Source of the DNA: Terriglobales bacterium | GTDB lineage: Bacteria; Acidobacteriota; Terriglobia; Terriglobales; SCQP01 | Direction: 5' to 3' | DNA: 64,000 bases | Assembly: GCA_050746205.1 (NCBI GenBank) | Contig: JBOGKW010000001.1 | Location: forward strand, 203 to 64,202 | Part shown: positions 33,013-43,320 of the stretch, one piece after another | Layout of the letters: the number at the start of each line of letters is the position of its first letter | Position numbering within the stretch: position 1 is the stretch's first letter | Notes under the pieces: generated by a model | What the model was told of the DNA's origin: nothing | Seen by the model: only the letters and a program-made list of their open reading frames with translations | Database searches by the model: none | Made by a program: the position numbers and the translations under genes

Positions 33013-33978
33013 GTGGTTGGGTCGCGGCGCACGCTGGCGTGGATGTGCCTGTGGGCCTGCTTGGCCACTACGGCCACGGCCCAAGGGTTCGTTGCGCCCC
33101 GCGGATGGCGCCTGGACCACGACGCCACGCTGACCCACGCGCCTTGGGGGCTGGCGCCGCAAGCGGCGGCCGCGATGGCGGAGTTTGGCTTGGTGCGGCG
33201 GCAAGTGGGGCGATACCGGCACGCTCGGCAGGCGGCGCAACTGGAGGTCTGGCTCTTCGGGGACAGTCAGGGCGCCTATGGGGCGGCCACCTATTTGCGC
33301 GCGCTTCGTGCGCCAGGCCGGGAGATGGCGCGGCGGCAGTGGTTGCTACGAGGAGAAGGGGCGATCTCGGCGCGCGCCTGGCGGGAGTGGACGCGGCGCG
33401 TCGTGGGCGGGACGCAGGGGCCGCTGCCGCTGCTGCGCCAGCACTTGCCCGCGGCGGGTCTGGTGCCCGACTCGGCGAATTATGCCGAGGGGCCCGCGGG
33501 CCTGGCGGCCATTGCGCCCTGGCTGCCCGCGCAGGCAGTGAACTTTCCCATGGAGCCGGTGATCGCCGCCGGCTGGTATCGGCTGGGTCGTGAACCGGCG
33601 GCGCAGGGGCAGCTGATCATCCTGTCCTATCCCACGCCGCAGATCGCGGCGGCCCAACTGGCGCCGATTCGTTCCGCCGCGGGATTGGCGCGCCGCTCCG
33701 GCCCCTTCGTCGTGGCCTGGCATGGTCCCGCATCGCGGCAAGCGAGTAAACTGCTGGCGACAGTCCATTACCGCGCCATCGTGGCCTGGAGCCAGCCGAT
33801 CGGGTTGCAGTCTCTGCCCGGGTTGATTTTAGCGATCTTCGTTCTGGTGGGTTTTATTCTCGCGGTTTGTTTGGCCGCCGGCTTGTTCGCCGGGGGCTTG
33901 CGAATTTTGCTGGCGAAGTGGTTTCCCCGCCGTTTCGCGGCGCATGCAGACCGGCTGATTCGCTTAAAGCTGCAGTAA
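33013..33978 (+). CDS. Hypothetical exported protein with a C-terminal TM anchor
   Basis: 321-aa ORF with a signal-like N-terminus (LWACLATTATAQG) and a C-terminal TM segment (LILAIFVLVGFILAVCLAAGLFAGGL). I recognised no family. Confidence 0.55.
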   Translation: MVGSRRTLAWMCLWACLATTATAQGFVAPRGWRLDHDATLTHAPWGLAPQAAAAMAEFGLVRRQVGRYRHARQAAQLEVWLFGDSQGAYGAATYLRALRAPGREMARRQWLLRGEGAISARAWREWTRRVVGGTQGPLPLLRQHLPAAGLVPDSANYAEGPAGLAAIAPWLPAQAVNFPMEPVIAAGWYRLGREPAAQGQLIILSYPTPQIAAAQLAPIRSAAGLARRSGPFVVAWHGPASRQASKLLATVHYRAIVAWSQPIGLQSLPGLILAIFVLVGFILAVCLAAGLFAGGLRILLAKWFPRRFAAHADRLIRLKLQ

Positions 33979-34007
33979 ACAAAATGCCCATCCTTGCGGA
34001 TGGGCAT
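33977..34007 (-). terminator. Intrinsic terminator oriented for the minus strand
   Basis: On the minus strand: ATGCCCATCC-GCAA-GGATGGGCAT (10-bp stem, GNRA loop) followed by TTTGTTT. On the plus strand the tail is only TTCGCT. Confidence 0.6.
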
Positions 34008-34117
34008 TTCGCTGGAGAATAGCTTCGAAGACCCAGGCCAGAAGAGCCGCTGGCGGCAGAAGCAGCCCCTGCCGCCCAAGGCCATTGCCGGCACCACGGT
34101 GCCCCGAAACCTTCGAT
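33977..34117 (-). ncRNA. Candidate ~140-nt structured small RNA (family unknown)
   Basis: It is bounded by a sigma70-like promoter and the intrinsic terminator. No reading frame closes before the terminator. Nested helices are visible by eye, and a single-stranded UUCUCC stretch precedes the terminator. Confidence 0.4.
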
Positions 34118-34124
34118 GGCCAAA

Positions 34125-34153
34125 ATCTTAAAATCAGCCGGATACCATGTCAA
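34125..34153 (-). promoter_or_regulatory. Sigma70-like promoter (TTGACA-17 nt-TAAGAT) on the minus strand
   Basis: The minus strand reads attcaccTTGACAtggtatccggctgatttTAAGATtttgg. An A/T-rich stretch (aaaacaaatgacttgtaaaat) lies upstream. This is the most AT-rich patch I noticed in the window. Confidence 0.45.
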
Positions 34154-34262
34154 GGTGAATCTTGACCTAGGAGGATTTTACAAGTCATTTGTTTTCATAA
34201 CGTTGCATTCCTGCCAGCCGGTCGTAACGATGCTACACTGCCGGTAGCGAGCCTTCAACCCC

Positions 34263-35234
34263 GTGCTCACCACCGACCGCTTGGCCTCCACTTCCCGCCT
34301 GGAAGCTTCGCTGCGGAGCGTCATCCGCACCCCGGTCCCGGCCGCCGACGGCCGTGATGACGCGGTGCGCATGGCGCTAATCGCGCTGGTCGCCAACGGA
34401 CACATTCTGATTGAGGACGTGCCAGGCGTAGGCAAGACGACACTGGCGCAAGCGCTGGCGCGCTCGCTGGACTGCACGCTGCAGCGAATTCAGTTCACCA
34501 GCGATCTGCTGCCCAGCGATGTCACCGGGATCAGCGTCTACAATCAGGCCAGCCAGCGCTTCGAGTTCAAGCGCGGACCCATCTTCGCCCATATCGTTGT
34601 GGCGGATGAGATCAACCGCACCACGCCCAAGACGCAATCGGCGCTGCTGGAGGCGATGAATGAACGCCAGGTGACCGCCGACGGCGAGACCCACCCGTTG
34701 CCGGCGCCGTTCCTGGTGGTGGCGACGCAAAATCCCATCGAGCATCAGGGCACCTTTCCGCTGCCGGAGAGCCAGCTGGACCGCTTCTTGGTGCGGATCC
34801 GCATGGGCTACCCCGCCATTGCGGATGAGAAGGCGATCCTCCGGGGCGACGCCGGCGCGGAGCGACTGGCCAGCGTGGTGGCGATTGCGACGGGCGAGGA
34901 GGTGCTGGCCTGGCAGGCCGCGGCGCGGGAGGTGCGCGTCGAGGAATCGCTGTTGGACTATGGGCTGGCTTTGGCGCGGGCCACGCGCGAGCATCCCGCC
35001 TTGGCCCTGGGCGTCAGCCCACGCGGCGCGTTGATGTTGTATCGGGCGGCACAGGCCCGCGCATGGCTCCAGGGGCGCGGTTATTGCACGCCGGATGACC
35101 TGAAGCGCCTGGCGGTGCCGGTGCTGGCGCACCGCATCGCGCTGAAGCCGAGCGTAGCGCATTGGGAACGGCGCTCGGAACAGGCCGACGCGTTGCTGGC
35201 GCAGATCGCCGCCACGGTGCCGGTGCCGGACTAG
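34263..35234 (+). CDS. moxR: MoxR-family AAA+ ATPase
   Basis: Walker A DVPGVGKTTLAQALA, Walker B IVVADEINRTTPKTQSALLEAM, followed by ...VVATQNPIEHQGTFPLPESQLDRF. Confidence 0.9.
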   Translation: MLTTDRLASTSRLEASLRSVIRTPVPAADGRDDAVRMALIALVANGHILIEDVPGVGKTTLAQALARSLDCTLQRIQFTSDLLPSDVTGISVYNQASQRFEFKRGPIFAHIVVADEINRTTPKTQSALLEAMNERQVTADGETHPLPAPFLVVATQNPIEHQGTFPLPESQLDRFLVRIRMGYPAIADEKAILRGDAGAERLASVVAIATGEEVLAWQAAAREVRVEESLLDYGLALARATREHPALALGVSPRGALMLYRAAQARAWLQGRGYCTPDDLKRLAVPVLAHRIALKPSVAHWERRSEQADALLAQIAATVPVPD

Positions 35235-35321
35235 GCGCCGAGATCCCGCAGTGTGGCAAAACAAAAACGGCGCCGGGCGCCCGCTCGCGCCCCGCGCCGA
35301 GTTGCCTTGGCGATGGTGAGC

Positions 35322-35813
35322 CTAGAACAACGATGGCGGAGTGCTGCCGCCGCTGCTGCACGAACTGCTGACCGTCTTGATCTTCTGCACATCCAGGCTT
35401 TGCTGCCCGCCCGCTTGTCCGGCCGGGGTTCCAGCCGCGCCGGCATTGCTCGCCGTGCCGGTAACCGTCACGGTGTGGTCCACGTGCTTGGACAGGTCCA
35501 CGTTGCTGCTGGTCAGAGTCCAGGTTTGATTGGTCGCTTGGTCGGTCAGGGAATACTGGCCGGCGCCGCTACTCTGTAGACAGCCCGTTGCCGAGACGGT
35601 TCCGCTGGCCATGCCCTGGTCTTGCTGGCCGGCCTGCGCACTCGGCTGTGCGCCGGGTTGCTGTTGCTGGCCCTGGTTGGGTTGCGCTTGCTGTTGCCCT
35701 TGCTGACCCTGCTGACCGGTGTTCTGAGCCCACGCCGGGGTCATCGCGGCGAAAAAGCACATCGCCACCAGCATCGTCAGTGTCGCTAGCAATTGATTAG
35801 TTCTCGAATGCAT
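35322..35813 (-). CDS. Small secreted protein with a Gln-rich low-complexity N-terminal region
   Basis: The ATG at 35813 is preceded by GGAGG. It has the signal peptide MHSRTNQLLATLTMLVAMCFFAAMTPAWA, then QNTGQQGQQGQQQAQPNQGQQQQPG..., then a beta-rich region with two Cys residues. Confidence 0.65.
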   Translation of the reverse strand: MHSRTNQLLATLTMLVAMCFFAAMTPAWAQNTGQQGQQGQQQAQPNQGQQQQPGAQPSAQAGQQDQGMASGTVSATGCLQSSGAGQYSLTDQATNQTWTLTSSNVDLSKHVDHTVTVTGTASNAGAAGTPAGQAGGQQSLDVQKIKTVSSSCSSGGSTPPSLF

Positions 35814-36350
35814 CTGCGTTCCTCCTGGGAATGCGTCCCAAGAACGCTCGGGCACGAGCCCCGGCGATCCCGGCGACGCTTTTGTAAGGAGATGCGGCGC
35901 GGTGGGCGGAGGTTGGGCCAGGTCCGGTGCCCTGAATGGGGGTAGCATGCACCCCACCAGGCCTCAGTGCCGGTCCCAGAAACTCCGCATCGCATCGTGA
36001 CCTCCTCCGCGACGAACTGGCGCGAGAAGCAGGGTGGCAGCGCCGGATGGTCTTGGCGCTCTGCCCTGCGCCCCTTGGCCTGACCAACTGCACGGCGCTT
36101 GCCAAAGGCCGGTGGCGAGCTAAATGCAGCCACTGGCGCGGGGGCCGGCATGCGCCGCGAAGAAGCCGTGCGGTTTAGGAGCGTGCGGGCGCGAAGTTTC
36201 CGCCCGCGAGTCAGCGCTTACTGCGTACCGCATATGTGGGACCGGGGTCATGGGGTTGCCGTCGCGATCCAGTCCCAAAAGACCACTGGCGGGCTGCCAG
36301 TAGGGAAGCCCACGCTGCCGGGTGTAGCGTAAACAGAGGAGGCTGAGACG

Positions 36351-36689: not shown

Positions 36690-37364
36690 GCAAGGAAATG
36701 GGGAGCCGGGGGCCGAGATCGTCAACTCCCGTGAGGCCAACTGGCGTCTACGTCCGCGGCGGGGGCCGCATCGAGTCCCGTTCCATCGAAACCATCGGGC
36801 TGACCAAGCTGGGCTTCCGTCGCGGTCCGGACATGGCGCAGGCAGCAGGCGCAGACCCTGGCCCGGCTGATCGGGCCGGACGGGGCGGCGCCCGCGCCGT
36901 TCGGCGGCAACGGCAGGCCGGCAACAATTGTCGTAACCCGAGCGCCGCCGGGCACGTTAGATAGTCCATGCGTGGGGCGCAACGCCGGGCGGCGGTCTAT
37001 CCGAGGGGATTTCCGGGACCCGCCTGGGTGTGGTATTTGGGGTTGGGGCTGGCGTTGGCGGCGGGCATGGTACTGCCACTGCACGCCCGCCGCCATCGCC
37101 TGCACCGCGCCCAGTTGGTTTCCGTGGCGCCGCATCCGGTGACCGCCTGGCTCGGGCCCACGGTGCGAGCGATTTCCCTGCCGCCGTTCGCCGTCCGGGC
37201 CCGGCGGGGTGCGGGCCAATCCCGCGTGCGCATCCGCCCACCCACCGCATAGCCCACAGGCAGGAATGCCTTGCCGATCGCCGGGCACCCATGCGTGGGT
37301 ACTGCCCCGGCGTCACACCTCAAGACCCACCGGCGACAGCCGGGCCCAAGTTGAGGAGAGCTTC

Positions 37365-38777
37365 ATGGGAACGTTTTGGCGCCTCCGGATCGCCGGCGGC
37401 AGCATCATCATCTGCCTGCTGGCCGTATGGGCCATGGCCGCCGTGCCGCCACCGGCGGCGAGCGGCGGCAATTTAACCCTGGCGCAGGCGGTGCGGCGAG
37501 CGCTGGCGTATTACCCGACCGCCTTGGCGGCGGCGCGCAACGCGGCGGCGGCGCAGGCGCAGGTGGGGGTCGCCAAGACCAGCTATCTGCCGGTGATGGG
37601 GCTGACGGCGCAATTCGACCGGGCCACGGATAATGCGGTGCTGGGCCTGTCGTTCCCCAGCCCATTGCCCTCGATCAGCGGCACCGTTCCCCCCAAGGAC
37701 TACTTTGGCGATTCCGCCTGGAGCAGCGCCGCGGGGTTGTATTTCAACTGGGAGTTCTTCGACTTTGGCCGCCGCGCCGCCAATGTGCATTTTTACCGGG
37801 ACCTGGCGGCGCAGGCGTCCGAGCAGGAACAATACGTGCGGCTGCAAGTGGCGGCGCATGCGGCGGATGCGTTCCTGAACGTGCTGGCGGCGCAGGCGCA
37901 GCAGAGCGTGGCCATGGCCGATGTGGGCCGCTGGCGCACGGTGGACCAGATCGTACGGGTGCTGGTGGGGCAACAACTGCGGCCGGGGGCCGATGCCTCG
38001 CGGGCAGACGCGGAGCTGGCCGGGGCGCGCATCCAGCTGGCCGGGGCGGAGCAGACGGTGCTGCGGGCCGACGCGGCACTGCGGGAGGCGGTGGGGGGCG
38101 CGGCGCTGCCGCAGTTGGACAGCGGGCTTTTGGCGGCGGCGCCGGAGGCGGCCCCACCCAGCGGGCCGGCGGCGCCGCAACACCCGGAAGCCTTGGCCCA
38201 GCAGCAGGCCGTCGCAGCCAGCCAGCAGCAGGGCAAAGAGCTGGCGGTCGCCGACCGGCCGCGCTTTTACATGCTGGGCGCGGCGTTTGGGCGGGGCACC
38301 GGAGTGCTGGCGCCGGGGCAATTGGCCGGCGGCCTGAACGGCCTGTCGCCCACCGGCGCGGGCAACTGGGCGGTGGGCGGGGCGGTGGATTTTTCCTTTA
38401 CCCGGCTGGCGCAGGTGCGGCAACAGCGGGCGGTGCAGCGCCAGCAGTTGGCCGCCGCCCAGGACCGCTACACGCTGGTGCTGGCGCAACTAGACGAGGT
38501 GCGGCGGCAGGCGGCGGCGGACTTGGCCGCGGCACGGCAGGTGGCCCAGGAGTCGCCCATCGAGCTGCAAGCCGCCCAGACCGGCGAGGCGCAGGCGCGG
38601 GCCCGCTATCAGGCCGGGTTGTCCGACATTGTGGATTTGGCGAACGCCGAGCAACTGCTGGCACGGGCGCAGAGCGATGACGCGCTGAGCCGGCTGCAGG
38701 TGTGGCGGGGCTGGCTGGAGACGGGTTACGCCAAGGGCGATCTGCAACCTTTTTTGCGCGCCGTCGGAGGCTATTAA
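37365..38777 (+). CDS. TolC-family outer membrane efflux protein
   Basis: The ATG at 37365 is preceded by GAGGAGAG. It has a signal peptide (MGTFWRLRIAGGSIIICLLAVWAMA) and the TolC repeat pattern. Its stop codon abuts the RND gene start (TAAATG). Confidence 0.85.
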   Translation: MGTFWRLRIAGGSIIICLLAVWAMAAVPPPAASGGNLTLAQAVRRALAYYPTALAAARNAAAAQAQVGVAKTSYLPVMGLTAQFDRATDNAVLGLSFPSPLPSISGTVPPKDYFGDSAWSSAAGLYFNWEFFDFGRRAANVHFYRDLAAQASEQEQYVRLQVAAHAADAFLNVLAAQAQQSVAMADVGRWRTVDQIVRVLVGQQLRPGADASRADAELAGARIQLAGAEQTVLRADAALREAVGGAALPQLDSGLLAAAPEAAPPSGPAAPQHPEALAQQQAVAASQQQGKELAVADRPRFYMLGAAFGRGTGVLAPGQLAGGLNGLSPTGAGNWAVGGAVDFSFTRLAQVRQQRAVQRQQLAAAQDRYTLVLAQLDEVRRQAAADLAAARQVAQESPIELQAAQTGEAQARARYQAGLSDIVDLANAEQLLARAQSDDALSRLQVWRGWLETGYAKGDLQPFLRAVGGY

Positions 38778-41700
38778 ATGAGGATGATCGCGGCTGCGCT
38801 ACGGCGGCCTTTCACGGTGTTGGTGCTGGCGGTGGTCGTGGTGGGGGCGGCGGTGCTGGCCGTCTCCCGCATGTCCATTGACGTCTTTCCCACCCTGGAC
38901 ATGCCGGTGCTCTATGTTGCCCAGCCCTACGGCGGCATGGCGCCGGCGGAGATGGAAGGCTACATCGTCAACTACTACGAGACCAATTTCCTCTACATCT
39001 CCGGCGTGGATCACATGGAGTCCCGTTCGATTCAGAACATGGGGCTCATCAAGCTGACTTTTCATCCCGGCACGGACATGGATCAGGCCGTGGCGGAGAC
39101 GGCGGCTTATGTGCAGCGCTCGCTAGCCTACATGCCGAAGGGCATTGTGCCGCCCTTCATCATGCGCTTCGACGCCGGCAGCGTGCCGGTGGGCGATTTG
39201 GTGCTCTCCAGCCGCACCGAATCCCAGGGCCAGTTGGACGACTTGGCCCAGATACGGATCCGGCCGATGTTCGCCGGCCTGGCCGGGGTGTCGGCGCCGC
39301 CGCCGTTTGGCGGCAATCCGCGCAGCATCATTGTCAGCATCAATCCCGACCGGTTGGCGGCGCAGGGGCTCTCGCTGGACGACGTGGTACAGGCCATCGC
39401 CAATGGCAACGCGGTGCTGCCCAGCGGCAATGCGCGCATCGGCAAGTGGAACCGCATCGTGCGCGTCAACACCGTGGTGCCCGCCTACCAGGACTTGACG
39501 GATTTGCCCCTGCGCAGCCGCTACGGCCCGATGATCCGGCTGGGGGACATCGCCACCATCGCCGACGCCGCCGACGTGGTCAGCGGCTACGCCGAATTGA
39601 ACGGGCGGCGGGTGGTTTACATCCCGGTCACCAAGCACGCCGACGCCTCCACGCTGCGGGTGGTCAGCGAGGTCAAGGCGGAGTTGCCGGAGATGCGGCA
39701 GCAACTGCCGCGCGACGTCCAGGTGCACTTCGCCTTTGACCAGTCGGTGTACGTGCGCAACGCCCTGCAGGTGCTGCTGACCGAGGGGCTGCTGGGCGCG
39801 CTGCTCACGGGCCTGGTGGTTTGGTTGTTTTTGCGCGATGCCCGGAGTTCGCTGATCGTGGTGACGGTCATTCCCTTCGCCTTGCTGGCGGCAGTGGCGG
39901 GGTTATGGGCCTTTGGCCAAAGCCTGAACATCATGACTCTGGGCGGGCTGGCGCTGGCTATCGGCATTTTGGTGGATGAGGCTACGGTGGCGGTGGAAAA
40001 CATTCACACCCACCTGGCCCGCGGGGCCAAGCCGGCGCGGGCGGCGCTGGCGGCGACGCGGGAGATCTTCTTGCCGCAGTTGCTGGCCATGCTGTGCGTG
40101 GCGGCGGTGTTTTTGCCGGCGTTCTTCATGACCGGCATCAGCCGTTCGCTCTTTATTCCCCTGGCGCTGGCCGTGGGGCTGGCGATGGGGGCGTCGTTCG
40201 TGCTGTCCAACACGCTGGTGCCGCTGCTGTCGGTGCTGCTGCTGCGGCATCACCATGGGCCCGCAGTGGCGCCGGAAGGGGTGGTGCCGGGGCGGCGCCC
40301 CTCGCCGCTGGAGCGGCTGCGGCAGGGCGTTCTGCGCTGGACGGCGCGGCTGGCGCCGCGGGCAAAGTGGGCGGTGGCGGTTTATCTGGTGGGTTGCCTG
40401 GCGCTGATCGCCACCTTCGTCCGCGCCGACGGCACCGATCTGTTCCCGCAGGCCAACACCGGCGAGTTCCAGGTGCGGCTGCGGGCGCCAACGGGCACGC
40501 GGCTGAAGCTGACGGAGCAGTTGTACAACCAGGCGCTGGGGCTGGTTGAGCGGGAGGCGGGGCCGGGGAATGTGGAGACGAGCCTGGGCTTCGTCGGGAC
40601 GCAGCCACGGTCGTACCCCATCAACACGATTTATTTGTGGACCAGTGGGCCGGAGGAGGCGGTGATGCAGGTGGCGCTGCGGCGCGGCTCCGGCATCAAG
40701 CTTTTGCCCTTCGAGGACCACCTGCGGCAGGCGTTCGCGCGCGAGATGCCGGACGTGACGATCTCATTCGAGGCGGGCGACATCATCGGCAAGATCATGA
40801 ATCTGGGGGCGCCGGCGCCGATCGCGGTGAACGTGACGGGGTTCCATTTGCAGCAGGACCAGGCCTACGCCCGCCAGGTGCGGGCAGCGCTGCGGCGCAT
40901 TCCGGCGCTGCGGGACGTGCAGTTTGAGCAGTCGGGCGCCTATCCGGCAGTGCTGATCAACGTGGACCGGGAGCGGGCGGCGGAGTTGGGCCTTTCGTTG
41001 GCGGCGATCGGCCGATCGCTGACCGAGGCCACCGCCTCCAGCCGCTTCGTGGCCCGGGACTTTTGGCAGAACCCGGCCACCGGCGTGACCTATCAGGTGC
41101 AGGCGCTGTATCCGCCGAGCGAGGTCAACAGCCTGGACGCGCTGCGCACCATGTCCTTGAAGACCGCGCCGGCGCGGGCGGTGGGGGCGGACGGGAATGG
41201 GGCGACGCGGGCGGTGGAACTGGGCGATGTGGCCCGGCTGGACTTCGGAACCGTCGAGGAGGAATACGACCACTACAACATGCAGCGGGTGATGACCGTG
41301 ACCGCCAACGTGCAGACGGGCAGCTTGGGCGATGCCGCCCAGGCGGTGCGGGCGGCGCTGGCGGAGTTGCCGCCGCCGCCGCGCGGGGTGCGAGTGGCGC
41401 TGCTGGGGCAGGTGCAGCCGATGGAGCAGACGCTGGCCGGCCTGCGCGGCGGGTTGCTGCTGGCGGTGGCGGTCATCCTGCTGCTGATGACGGCCAGCTT
41501 CCAGAGCTGGCGGCTGGCCTTGGCGGTGGTCTCGGCCGTGCCGGCGCTGCTGGTGGGGGTGCTGGTGTCGCTGTATTTGTTTGGCTCGACACTGAACATC
41601 GAGTCCTTCATGGGGGCGATCATGACCATCGGCATCGCCGTGGCCAACGGGATTTTGCTGATCACGATGGCGGAGCAGGCGCGGCGGCGGCGGCAAGCCG

Positions 41701-42065
41701 AATGGCGGGCCGAGGCGGCGCGGGACGGAGCCGCGCCGGCGGAGAGCCAGGAGGCCGGCCGGCGCGCGCGTGCGGCGCTGGCGGCGGCGGGGGAGGGGGC
41801 GGGCGTGCGGTTGCGGCCCATCTTGATGACCGCCGCGGCGATGATCGCAGGCATGATCCCGATGGCGCTATCGCTGGAGGCGGGCGGCGAGCAGTCGGCC
41901 CCGCTCGGGCAGGCGGTCATCGGCGGGCTGGCGGCGGCCACGCTGGCCACGCTGCTGATCATGCCGGCGGTGTTCCTCCTGCTGCAACGAAAGCAATCGG
42001 ACGCGACGCCCTCGTTGGATCCGGAGGATCCCGAGAGCCGGGAGTTCGAGGAGGCGGAGGCATGA
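38778..42065 (+). CDS. AcrB/AcrD/AcrF-family RND efflux permease
   Basis: 1095 aa with a typical RND N-terminus (...RPFTVLVLAVVVVGAAVLAVSRMSIDVFPTLDMPVLYV...) and twelve-TM layout. Confidence 0.95.
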   Translation: MRMIAAALRRPFTVLVLAVVVVGAAVLAVSRMSIDVFPTLDMPVLYVAQPYGGMAPAEMEGYIVNYYETNFLYISGVDHMESRSIQNMGLIKLTFHPGTDMDQAVAETAAYVQRSLAYMPKGIVPPFIMRFDAGSVPVGDLVLSSRTESQGQLDDLAQIRIRPMFAGLAGVSAPPPFGGNPRSIIVSINPDRLAAQGLSLDDVVQAIANGNAVLPSGNARIGKWNRIVRVNTVVPAYQDLTDLPLRSRYGPMIRLGDIATIADAADVVSGYAELNGRRVVYIPVTKHADASTLRVVSEVKAELPEMRQQLPRDVQVHFAFDQSVYVRNALQVLLTEGLLGALLTGLVVWLFLRDARSSLIVVTVIPFALLAAVAGLWAFGQSLNIMTLGGLALAIGILVDEATVAVENIHTHLARGAKPARAALAATREIFLPQLLAMLCVAAVFLPAFFMTGISRSLFIPLALAVGLAMGASFVLSNTLVPLLSVLLLRHHHGPAVAPEGVVPGRRPSPLERLRQGVLRWTARLAPRAKWAVAVYLVGCLALIATFVRADGTDLFPQANTGEFQVRLRAPTGTRLKLTEQLYNQALGLVEREAGPGNVETSLGFVGTQPRSYPINTIYLWTSGPEEAVMQVALRRGSGIKLLPFEDHLRQAFAREMPDVTISFEAGDIIGKIMNLGAPAPIAVNVTGFHLQQDQAYARQVRAALRRIPALRDVQFEQSGAYPAVLINVDRERAAELGLSLAAIGRSLTEATASSRFVARDFWQNPATGVTYQVQALYPPSEVNSLDALRTMSLKTAPARAVGADGNGATRAVELGDVARLDFGTVEEEYDHYNMQRVMTVTANVQTGSLGDAAQAVRAALAELPPPPRGVRVALLGQVQPMEQTLAGLRGGLLLAVAVILLLMTASFQSWRLALAVVSAVPALLVGVLVSLYLFGSTLNIESFMGAIMTIGIAVANGILLITMAEQARRRRQAEWRAEAARDGAAPAESQEAGRRARAALAAAGEGAGVRLRPILMTAAAMIAGMIPMALSLEAGGEQSAPLGQAVIGGLAAATLATLLIMPAVFLLLQRKQSDATPSLDPEDPESREFEEAEA

Positions 42066-42126
42066 GCGGGCAGGCGAGGACGCCATGCATCGGATGGCGG
42101 CGGGGCGGACGGAAAGGATCTCGGCA

Positions 42127-43320
42127 ATGGGCATGAGAACGCGAAATCGGCGGTGGAGTGGGGCGGGGCTGGCGGCAGGGCTGATGTTGGCGCTGGCGGC
42201 GCTGGCCGGCGGCTTGGGCGGATGCAGCGCGCACGGCGGCCACACAGTGCGAGCGGCGGAAGCCAGCCTGCCGCCGCTGGTGGCTACGGCGCCCGTGCGG
42301 CGGGAGCGGCCGCGGCTGAGCACCGACCTGCCAGCGGAGTTGGACCCGTATCAGGATGTGGTCCTGCGGGCGCGCGTGCCCGGGTTTGTGGCCCGTCTCT
42401 ACGCCGACCGCGGTACGCGGGTGCGGGCTGGACAACTGCTGGCGACGATTGAGGCGCCGGATCTGGTGGCCAAGGTGGGCCAAGCGGAGCAGCAGTTGAG
42501 CGCGGCGCGGGCGCAGCGGGCCGAGGCGCAGGCGGCGCTGGCCCGGGACCAGGCGACGCTGCAGCGGCTGAGCGGCGCGGCGCAGGCCATGCCCGGAGCG
42601 GTGGCCGGCAACGACATCACGGTGGCGCAGCAGACGGTGAAGATGGACGCGGCGCAGTCGCAGTCCCGCGCCGCGGCCGAGGCGGCGGCGCAAAAAGCCC
42701 TACAGTCGGTGACGGCGCTGGAGCAATACCTCCAGGTGCGGGCGCCGTTCTCCGGCATGGTGGTGACGCGCATGATCTCCGCGGGGGCGCTGGTGGGACC
42801 GGGAGGCGTGCCGATGTTCGAGGTCCAGCAGTTGGATCCCCTGCGGCTGACCGTGGATGTGCCGGAGGCCGAGGTGGGGGGCGCGGCGATCGGCGACCGC
42901 GTCGCCTTCACCGTCACTAGCGCACCGGGGCGCACGTTCACCGCGGTGGTGGCGCGCATCGCCCACAGCCTGTTGCCGCAGACCCGCACCATGCCGGTCG
43001 AGGCCGACGCCGCCAACCCGCAGTTGGTATTGGCGCCGGGGATGTTCGCCCGGGTGCTCTGGCCGGTGCAGCGGCGGCAGCCGACGTTGTATGTGCCGAC
43101 GACGGCGGTTCTGGACACCACGTTGGGCCAGAGCGTCGAGGTGGTACGCAACGGGAAAATCGCCATGGTGCCGGTGACAACGGGCTTCACCGACGGCGCG
43201 CAGATGGAGGTCTTCGGGCCACTGCAGCCGGGCGATCCGGTGGTCACGCCGGGGGACAAGACGCTGGCTGCGGGGTCGGCGGTGCGGGTCGCCGCCAGCG
43301 GCGCTGGCACCGGGTCGTAG
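42127..43320 (+). CDS. Efflux RND periplasmic adaptor subunit (lipoprotein)
   Basis: Lipobox LAGGLGGC and an adaptor hairpin (...EAPDLVAKVGQAEQQLSAARAQRAEAQAALARDQATLQRL...). The start is ambiguous (42085, 42094, 42127 or 42133). Confidence 0.85.
   Translation: MGMRTRNRRWSGAGLAAGLMLALAALAGGLGGCSAHGGHTVRAAEASLPPLVATAPVRRERPRLSTDLPAELDPYQDVVLRARVPGFVARLYADRGTRVRAGQLLATIEAPDLVAKVGQAEQQLSAARAQRAEAQAALARDQATLQRLSGAAQAMPGAVAGNDITVAQQTVKMDAAQSQSRAAAEAAAQKALQSVTALEQYLQVRAPFSGMVVTRMISAGALVGPGGVPMFEVQQLDPLRLTVDVPEAEVGGAAIGDRVAFTVTSAPGRTFTAVVARIAHSLLPQTRTMPVEADAANPQLVLAPGMFARVLWPVQRRQPTLYVPTTAVLDTTLGQSVEVVRNGKIAMVPVTTGFTDGAQMEVFGPLQPGDPVVTPGDKTLAAGSAVRVAASGAGTGS

Follow-up and report, generated by a model that had tools for sequence, protein, structure and literature searches.

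Does a short intergenic interval that carries promoter and terminator signals on the strand opposite to both of its neighbours hold a gene of its own, or do these signals only serve the genes on either side? The question is raised by a 64,000-nucleotide (nt) stretch of DNA from a Terriglobales bacterium (contig JBOGKW010000001.1; the whole stretch is called the window hereafter), in which a minus-strand unit at positions 33977-34153 has the layout of a small RNA (sRNA) gene: TTGACA, a 17-nt spacer and TAAGAT (34153-34125), followed by about 140 nt of G+C-rich sequence and by a hairpin with a U-tract (34010-33977). Both flanking genes, a DUF6599-like gene ending at 33978 and moxR (encoding a MoxR-type AAA+ ATPase; AAA_3, PF07726, 8e-65) starting at 34263, lie on the plus strand. 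In soils, few bacteria are as abundant as the Acidobacteria (Terriglobia), an under-studied phylum for which our literature search returned no characterised regulatory sRNA; nor did it return a moxR-associated non-coding RNA. The comparative evidence makes it very probable that the locus is an independently transcribed, conserved non-coding RNA gene. It represents a new family of stand-alone bacterial sRNA, rather than a new type of molecule or mechanism, and we consider an autonomous sRNA gene that acts in trans by base pairing to be the best explanation of the whole, at a probability of roughly 0.55. The locus offers a well-delimited sRNA family with its covariance model, an invariant 9-nt motif to mutate, and a strict genomic partner that hints at function.

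A conserved family of predicted transcription units

How widespread is this unit? A MoxR search of public genomes gave 80 Acidobacteria loci, 8 of which contain the intergenic element according to nhmmer or blastn and 13 according to a covariance model, R1. In the window, R1 marks a single copy (33978-34119, 100.9 bits, E 7e-25). Elsewhere, the model delimits a core of 19 distinct members (60-116 bits), two further copies designated L092 and L094, and eight distinct short forms beside distant DUF6599 genes (L095-L097 and L099-L103; L105 repeats L103). The 30 homologous copies outside the window lie on contigs of other Acidobacteria (Terriglobales/Terriglobia) from uncultured soil lineages, and promoter, RNA, and terminator are conserved together in them. 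Homologues were reached independently, via the synteny of moxR and DUF6599 genes and via a pattern scan for the RNA only. The latter, run on metagenomes and requiring GTTTCGNG...CTTCGRRRCTRTTCTCC, returned 11 stretches (2 by chance) and yielded further copies, invariably in the same synteny: amidase, (ADH), DUF6599, RNA, moxR. Because the pattern was too strict and missed the short forms, it understates the size of the family. The short forms measure 85-110 nt (the RNA is about 140 nt long in the window and 85-140 nt in relatives) and consist of the same upstream box, -35 and -10 hexamers, a simple hairpin (e.g., GAAAGUUCUGAUGG-loop-CCGUUGGAACU), the motif CUAUUCUCC(CU...), and a terminator. 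Since they retain the closing helix P1, CUAUUCUCC, and the terminator, these three elements form the irreducible core of the family.

The promoter lies where the original prediction had placed it and is conserved in homologues. With a -35 hexamer TTGACA at 34148-34153 and, across 17 nt, a -10 hexamer TAAGAT at 34125-34130 (both on the minus strand), it scores 10/12 and is the sole sigma70-like match in 4 kb, where 0.4 would be expected. The -35 hexamer reads TTGACA in 17 of the 19 core members and TTGACT in the other 2, and family variants of the -10 hexamer are TAAGAT, TACCAT, TAATAT, and TACTAT. Hexamers, spacer, and start context are conserved across the family, the hexamers also in the short, minimal forms, and the distance from the -35 hexamer to a conserved GTTTCG stays at 42-44 nt in all core members. 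An invariant, unpaired CCAU lies 5-8 nt past the -10 hexamer, at the expected start; with its A taken as the first nucleotide and the 3' end placed in the U-tract, the predicted transcript spans 33977-34117 on the minus strand (~140 nt). About 45 nt upstream of the -35 hexamer stands an A-rich box, TGAAAACAA (34189-34197, minus strand; family consensus ~TTGAAAACAAAGG, also written TTGAAAACAAA), which keeps the same offset in most members, is 21 base pairs (bp) closer in L083 and L089, and accompanies the RNA in both orientations. Elsewhere in the window the box is not enriched, a regulon-type search giving a chance-level count. It is a possible activator or UP-like site, and the conserved promoter together with the upstream box points to a putative regulator. 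The AT-rich island in which the unit had been said to lie is borne out by a GC content of 0.41-0.47 at 34100-34250 against ~0.68 around it.

At the other end of the unit, about 140 nt downstream, the predicted intrinsic terminator (33977-34010, minus strand) is equally well placed. Its stem pairs 34010-33998 with 33993-33982 around a GCAA loop and is followed by a U-tract at 33984-33977; the hairpin reads ATGCCCATCC-GCAA-GGATGGGCAT at 34007-33984, then TTTGTTT to 33977, or in fuller form GAAAUGCCCAUCC-GCAA-GGAUGGGCAUUU then UUUUGUUU. A simple terminator scan misses it for the sole reason that the stem runs into A and U tracts. Among homologues the hairpin sequence differs in every clade, with compensatory changes at 8-9 of 10 stem pairs and ~95% of the alignment cells paired. 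That a U-tract exists only in the minus orientation also holds: only UUUCGCUG follows the hairpin on the plus strand, and homologues invariably have their U-tract 3' on the strand of the RNA. To which gene, then, does the terminator belong? In the window it begins 5 nt past the DUF6599 stop codon (33976-33978). In genomes where RNA and flanking genes are co-oriented, the hairpin lies 250-400 nt past that stop with the RNA promoter in between, a gene order that makes it part of the RNA unit rather than just of the DUF6599 gene. In the clade of the window, termination is probably bidirectional and would stop the DUF6599 transcript as well.

RNA structure and coding potential

What is conserved in the RNA itself? 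The predicted transcript has a minimum free energy (MFE) of -80.9 kcal/mol (z = -5.8; 0 of 200 shuffles fold as well), and the RNA bodies of homologues reach z values of -1.6 to -3.9 in 12 of the 12 tested. A closing helix of nine pairs, P1, joins a 5' strand GAAGGUUUCGGGG (34102-34114) to a 3' strand UCUUCGAAGCUAUUC (34017-34031, both on the minus strand, paired by comparison), with GGUUUCG.GG opposite CU.CGAAGCU in the window and AGUUUCG.GG opposite CU.CGRRRCU in the family. P1 is present in the single-sequence MFE structure of all 19 core members; in the model-based alignment 99-100% of its cells are paired (terminator, 95%), and 100% when distant members are added. P1 and terminator together are 97% paired, a figure that drops to 38-53% once the partners are slid against each other and that 0 of 500 column shuffles attain. 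Fitting the alignments to the covariance model favours the structure, but the slid controls bear it out, as do the independently computed single-sequence MFEs. Among core members, the only variation in P1 consists of A/G transitions facing U (G·U to A-U). The G·U pairs put the RNA on the proposed strand, since the other strand would give C·A mismatches. In the wider set, 3 of the 9 P1 pairs are fully compensatory (UA/CG/UG, CG/UG/UA, GU/CG/UG). The check for conservation and compensatory change in relatives, which the original prediction had proposed, thus comes out in its favour at 30 other loci, for P1 as well as for the terminator. The sequence of P1 is conserved on both strands more than pairing would require: 2-3 pairs are invariant, and the G·U pairs keep to fixed places. 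Two side observations concern this helix: CUUCGAAG in its 3' strand (34021-34030, minus strand, family-wide) is a perfect 8-nt palindrome, and the 5' CGAAGGUUUCG might fold locally into a small hairpin; the RNA could conceivably dimerise or pair in other ways.

The interior enclosed by P1 varies by clade: most members have a rod, L005 and L090 have three hairpins instead, the window's clade adds a hairpin at the apex, and the short forms have almost no interior. The CU-rich 3' strand of the rod, GGCUCUUCUGGCCUGGG (34032-34048, minus strand; family GCAGCCUUCUUGCCGGGG), is conserved in sequence in the 19 core members, its pairing partners changing between subclades, and the core family also shares a CU-rich GCAGCCUUCUUGCCGGG followed by CUUCGRRRCUAUUCUCC. 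The apical loop of the core family, UUYGCA, is unpaired and has an invariant G. In the window's subclade this ancestral loop is replaced by a specific insertion of ~22 nt that forms the apical hairpin GGGCGGCAGGG-GCU-GCUUCUGCCGCC (34052-34077, minus strand), and L094 and L092 have a different, still hairpin-forming sequence at the same site. A single consensus fold for the interior (model R2, with helices P2 and P3 in the L082 register) proved only 67% paired on realignment, and a unified interior model was dropped because the interior is clade-variable. The overall consensus begins with a 3-nt 5' overhang and P1, which encloses an interior that is stable yet differs between clades; a short exposed tail, CUCC(A), and the terminator follow. 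The fold originally drawn by eye fares less well than the promoter and terminator. Its closing helix (UCGAAGG with UCUUCGA) is one register off P1 and breaks in L005 and L090 (UCAACAG), and its hairpin GGCAC/GUGCC does not occur in the MFE structure; the hairpin GGCGGCAG/CUGCCGCC is real, but it is clade-specific and belongs to an interior fold that is not conserved.

The sole invariant stretch of the RNA is CUAUUCUCC (34014-34022, minus strand), identical in 19 of 19 core members except for A to G at one position in 2 of them, and kept in all short forms. It contains UUCUCC, the sequence that had been singled out as a likely functional single-stranded motif, a choice that the conservation supports. 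The CUCC within it has an unpaired probability of 0.66-0.99, and the tail becomes more CU-rich in the short forms (CUCCCUU and CUCCUCUC).

Could the transcript instead be coding? In the window no frame has a stop within the RNA, as first described, and the view that it is non-coding is sustained in that nothing in these frames is conserved. Across homologues we found no conserved open reading frame (ORF), start codon, or Shine-Dalgarno (SD) sequence; stops occur in various frames, and the 22-nt insertion and other non-triplet indels shift the reading frames. A tRNA- or tmRNA-like reading of the ...CUCCA tail was also considered and rejected, ARAGORN finding nothing.

Orientation of the cassette and its genomic partner

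Is the RNA independent of its neighbours? The window, L001-L004, L085, L092, and L094 carry the cassette of box, promoter, RNA, and terminator in opposite orientation to both flanking genes; all other loci have it co-oriented with them, and it is intact either way. Where comparable, orientation tracks MoxR identity, loci at >=70% being inverted and those at <=67% co-oriented; in the inverted loci MoxR is 70-90% identical and the cassette is conserved. One ancient in-place inversion of a cassette of ~250 bp would explain this pattern. Being inverted, the window's cassette points away from moxR and towards the DUF6599 gene. Its boundary is marked by the extended -10 element of the moxR promoter, TGCTACACT (34231-34239, plus strand), which lies outside the RNA unit; an extended -10, TGnTAnAnT, is found ~20-110 nt upstream of moxR in 13 of 13 moxR-centred loci, whichever way the RNA points. 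Because the cassette is inverted relative to its flanks yet intact, we regard it as an autonomous gene, not a moxR leader or a mere terminator; for the window copy, the inverted, intact cassette and moxR's own extended -10 exclude a moxR leader or attenuator. The in-place inversion thus amounts to a natural experiment that separates an independent gene from a leader or terminator. Taken together, the locus shows several features expected of a stand-alone sRNA gene: a co-conserved promoter of its own, a same-strand terminator with compensatory changes, independence from the flanking genes, and no coding content.

A perfect 9-nt inverted repeat, GACCGGCTG / CAGCCGGTC (33949-33957 and 34215-34223), brackets the inverted cassette, with its left arm inside the coding end of the DUF6599 gene and a related 10-mer in the promoter spacer (34132-34141). 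By eye, the repeat is partly retained in L001 and absent in L003 and L004, and it is probably a chance occurrence or a relic of the inversion. A phase-variable invertible switch was rejected: the inverted repeat is not conserved in L003/L004, and orientation is fixed within clades and tracks MoxR similarity.

If the RNA is independent, does it nevertheless keep constant company? The original description placed it upstream of moxR, which is true of the window and incidental for the family. The unit has the other orientation in most relatives. By gene order, the constant partner is the DUF6599-family gene, and adjacency to moxR is clade-specific. A DUF6599 gene adjoins the RNA in 28 of 31 copies, the exceptions being L094, L092 (a macB-like insert and its remnant, respectively), and L105 (which repeats L103). 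Of the 80 moxR loci, precisely those 13 with a DUF6599-like gene upstream contain the RNA; about nine of the others offer too short an upstream sequence for a judgement. Each of the 8 distant DUF6599 loci, at ~30% identity and without a moxR in the vicinity, has a hit of 23-31 bits, located 115-258 nt downstream on the same strand. The insertion that separates the partners in one sub-lineage encodes a MacB/FtsX-type ABC permease of 792 aa (L094, 1145-3523, minus strand; L093, 1259-3637, minus strand; an 87-aa remnant in L092, 3976-4239, minus strand). In L094 this macB-like gene lies between DUF6599 and the RNA, which is still next to moxR; in L092 the FtsX remnant separates the RNA from DUF6599 and the contig ends short of moxR; and L093 has the permease insertion, but neither the RNA nor moxR is within its contig. 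As a result of the insertion, the sRNA stands immediately before the permease gene and in the same orientation.

The DUF6599-family gene of the window (33013-33978, plus strand) encodes a signal peptide, a periplasmic domain, and one C-terminal transmembrane helix; its ORF starts with GTG at 33013, and the identical database protein (P0001, 311 aa) starts with ATG at 33043. Genes of this family are often preceded by one for an AmiC-type cell-wall amidase. Homologues form more than 2000 sequence clusters, mostly from Terriglobales metagenome-assembled genomes, and because they are so numerous the RNA family is probably large as well. Our literature search returned no paper mentioning DUF6599. 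An intriguing, if doubtful, idea is that the RNA is a dedicated partner of a DUF6599 envelope-protein module, which it would regulate, respond to, or join in a ribonucleoprotein. Such a partnership would explain why the RNA stayed beside DUF6599 across the sampled Terriglobales/Terriglobia while all its other neighbours changed, and, if true, it would give a first functional handle on the orphan DUF6599 family and on sRNA regulation in Acidobacteria.

Downstream of the RNA, by comparison, the neighbour varies: moxR, tRNA-Thr, a Zn-ribbon gene, a glycosyl hydrolase gene, macB, or the antisense strand of DUF6599. In co-oriented relatives the extended -10 of moxR starts 3-10 nt past the sRNA terminator. 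The window's moxR has a short leader with no obvious SD sequence before its GTG at 34263, and it is seemingly monocistronic, with no DUF58 or VWA partner gene downstream. Seven of the 8 distant DUF6599 loci have a gene for tRNA-Thr(CGU) at 7-730 nt downstream of their short-form RNA (L095, 5546-5621, minus strand; L096, 5822-5897; L097, 5630-5705; L099, 4161-4236; L100, 3897-3972; L102, 2782-2857; L103, 5131-5206). In L100 it begins 7 nt past the U-tract and has no promoter-like site of its own, and in L099 it has one; co-transcription of RNA and tRNA-Thr is possible in some lineages. The core (moxR) clade and the whole window have no tRNA of any kind. Further along the window are a terminator-like hairpin, GGCGCCCGGCGCC then GTTTTTGTTT (35269-35281, minus strand), between moxR (ending at 35234) and a convergent DUF5818-like minus-strand gene (35322-35957), and an RND-type efflux operon (37209-43320, plus strand) comprising an outer-membrane factor (OEP), an AcrB-family transporter (2.5e-177), and a HlyD-family adaptor.

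Mode of action and competing explanations

How might such an RNA act? Its architecture of hairpin, pyrimidine-rich single strand, and terminator, combined with the invariant, anti-SD-like CUAUUCUCC, suggests a base-pairing sRNA. The 3' part of CUAUUCUCC, CUCC(A), is the candidate seed in the modelled structures. We envisage that a housekeeping-type promoter, preceded by the A-rich box, would drive a non-coding transcript that regulates in trans by base pairing. Pairing would start at the exposed tail, the CU-rich CUCC(A/C/U), and could extend into UAUU as P1 breathes; pairing with the purine-rich SD regions (GGAGAAUA-like) of mRNAs would then block ribosome binding and repress translation, the terminator hairpin and U-tail presumably serving as the usual stability or chaperone module. 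Taken by itself, this trans-acting mechanism has about even odds of being correct.

Several observations weigh against this proposal. The start site, 3' end, and abundance of the sRNA are themselves predictions. The fully exposed stretch is only 4-5 nt long, and the predicted folds of the short forms pair UUCU with the 5' end. Target scans, which covered the window and the ~9-kb loci, turned up no target: the seed complement occurs 14 times in the window against 7.9 +/- 3, generic SD-like matches at chance level; RNAduplex scans of the ~9-kb loci gave generic SD sites only; and the DUF6599 translation-initiation regions have no conserved match to the RNA. A generic trans-acting role does not explain the strict linkage to DUF6599, and the sequence conservation of the P1 strands and of the UUYGCA loop could equally reflect recognition by a protein.

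This last point is the basis of an alternative in which the molecule is a protein-binding or structural RNA, be it a sponge, a cofactor, or the partner of the envelope module that the adjoining gene encodes, and in which P1, UUYGCA, and CUAUUCUCC are protein-recognition elements. The excess conservation of both P1 strands, the unpaired apical loop with its invariant G, the DUF6599 linkage that holds across ~30% protein identity and changing neighbours, and the failure of the target scans to give a convincing mRNA would all fit such a role. We nevertheless judge it unlikely, considering that no known motif is apparent (CsrB-type repeats of GGA loops, a 6S-like bubble, and Rfam hits are all missing), that the apical part, including the UUYGCA loop, has been replaced or deleted in some clades, and that a hairpin, a CU-rich tail, and a terminator are typical of base-pairing sRNAs. 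Less probable still is a cis-acting element, i.e., a leader, attenuator, or source of read-through or antisense transcripts controlling moxR or tRNA-Thr where the cassette is co-oriented, or the DUF6599 3' end where it is inverted. The closeness of the terminator to the moxR extended -10 in co-oriented loci, the promoter-less tRNA-Thr just behind the U-tract in L100, the macB-like gene next on the same strand in L094, and the convergence of the window RNA on a DUF6599 gene whose terminator it shares would each suit one version of this idea. Several points speak against it: the downstream element varies between loci while the RNA is constant, an inverted cassette cannot lead moxR and yet is conserved in the inverted loci, and moxR, as well as tRNA-Thr in L099, has a promoter-like site of its own. 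Nor does the RNA contain any complement to the variable terminator with which an antiterminator could form, and the interior, which would have to be the aptamer, is unconserved and only 67% paired in any single register.

Might there be no RNA gene at all? The hairpin could be the DUF6599 terminator lying by accident opposite a fortuitous promoter match, or the conserved sites could serve moxR or DUF6599 as DNA. The position of the hairpin 5 nt past the DUF6599 stop, and the A-tract on its other side, which makes two-way termination plausible, give this some purchase in the window, and a terminator of the plus-strand gene only was the reading that the original prediction had named as its own refutation. 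The co-oriented relatives contradict it, their hairpin following the RNA far from the DUF6599 stop and behind an intervening promoter, even though the terminator probably also serves DUF6599 here. Moreover, promoter-to-terminator distance and content are conserved in 30 loci, and strand-specific G·U pairing and compensatory changes in P1 are inexplicable at the DNA level, which leaves this reading with hardly any credence. A transcript that encodes a small protein is just as implausible: in the window the three frames run through the RNA without a stop, and mechanical ORFs run at 33854-34153 and 33768-34097, but neither has a Pfam hit, there is no conserved start codon or SD sequence, and the homologues have stops and frame-shifting indels. 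An autonomous sRNA gene that probably pairs with mRNAs in trans thus continues to be the reading that we favour.

Comparison with known RNA families

Does the RNA belong to a family that is already described? The original prediction recognised none, and the covariance-model scans that it called for agree. Against Rfam 15 at gathering threshold, the window has no match, and the 16 homologous loci scanned have only an unrelated tRNA. E-value scans of four copies (the window and three homologues) gave inconsistent hits of <=24.6 bits on the terminator; those to RNAI, Thr_leader, rnk_pseudo, and miRNA families were dismissed as terminator look-alikes. Acido-1 (RF01686) and Acido-Lenti-1 (RF01687), the only Acidobacteria-specific non-coding RNA motifs named in PMC2864571, resemble the present RNA as candidate stand-alone Acidobacteria non-coding RNAs that came from comparative genomics (PMC2864571). 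Neither gave a hit, even at E <= 10, in the window copy and three homologues, nor at gathering threshold in the 16 loci. 6S RNA (RF00013), a rod of ~180 nt with a large central bubble, was also rejected: there is no Rfam hit, the body of the present RNA measures 72-105 nt without a conserved bubble, and in the short forms it is an 11-bp hairpin.

Riboswitch and attenuator leaders share with the co-oriented relatives the order of box, promoter, structured RNA, terminator, and moxR. They differ in that the present unit is inverted in the window's clade and stands before unrelated genes elsewhere, that its interior is unconserved with no antiterminator evident, and that moxR has its own promoter. 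A likeness in layout, comprising a hairpin, a single-stranded CU-rich anti-SD stretch, and a terminator, is found in mmgR/alpha-r8 (RF00519 suhB) and the Betaproteobacteria toxic sRNA (RF02278), which alone among the sub-threshold Rfam hits have a similar theme. Their scores of 11.7-13.1 bits, against gathering thresholds of 41-50, are at chance level and driven by the terminator, and both taxa and conserved sequence differ. RsaE/RoxS of the Firmicutes and similar C/U-rich anti-SD sRNAs share several features, being short RNAs with their own promoter, hairpins, an exposed pyrimidine-rich motif capable of pairing with SD sequences, an intrinsic terminator, and conservation across a large clade. 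They belong to a different phylum and show no similarity in sequence or by covariance model; where RsaE/RoxS present C-rich loops, the acidobacterial RNA has a single invariant CUAUUCUCC beside its closing helix. By analogy, then, the probable mode of action is most like that of the CU- or C-rich anti-SD sRNAs, RsaE/RoxS and mmgR among them, which the RNA would resemble without being a member of their families.

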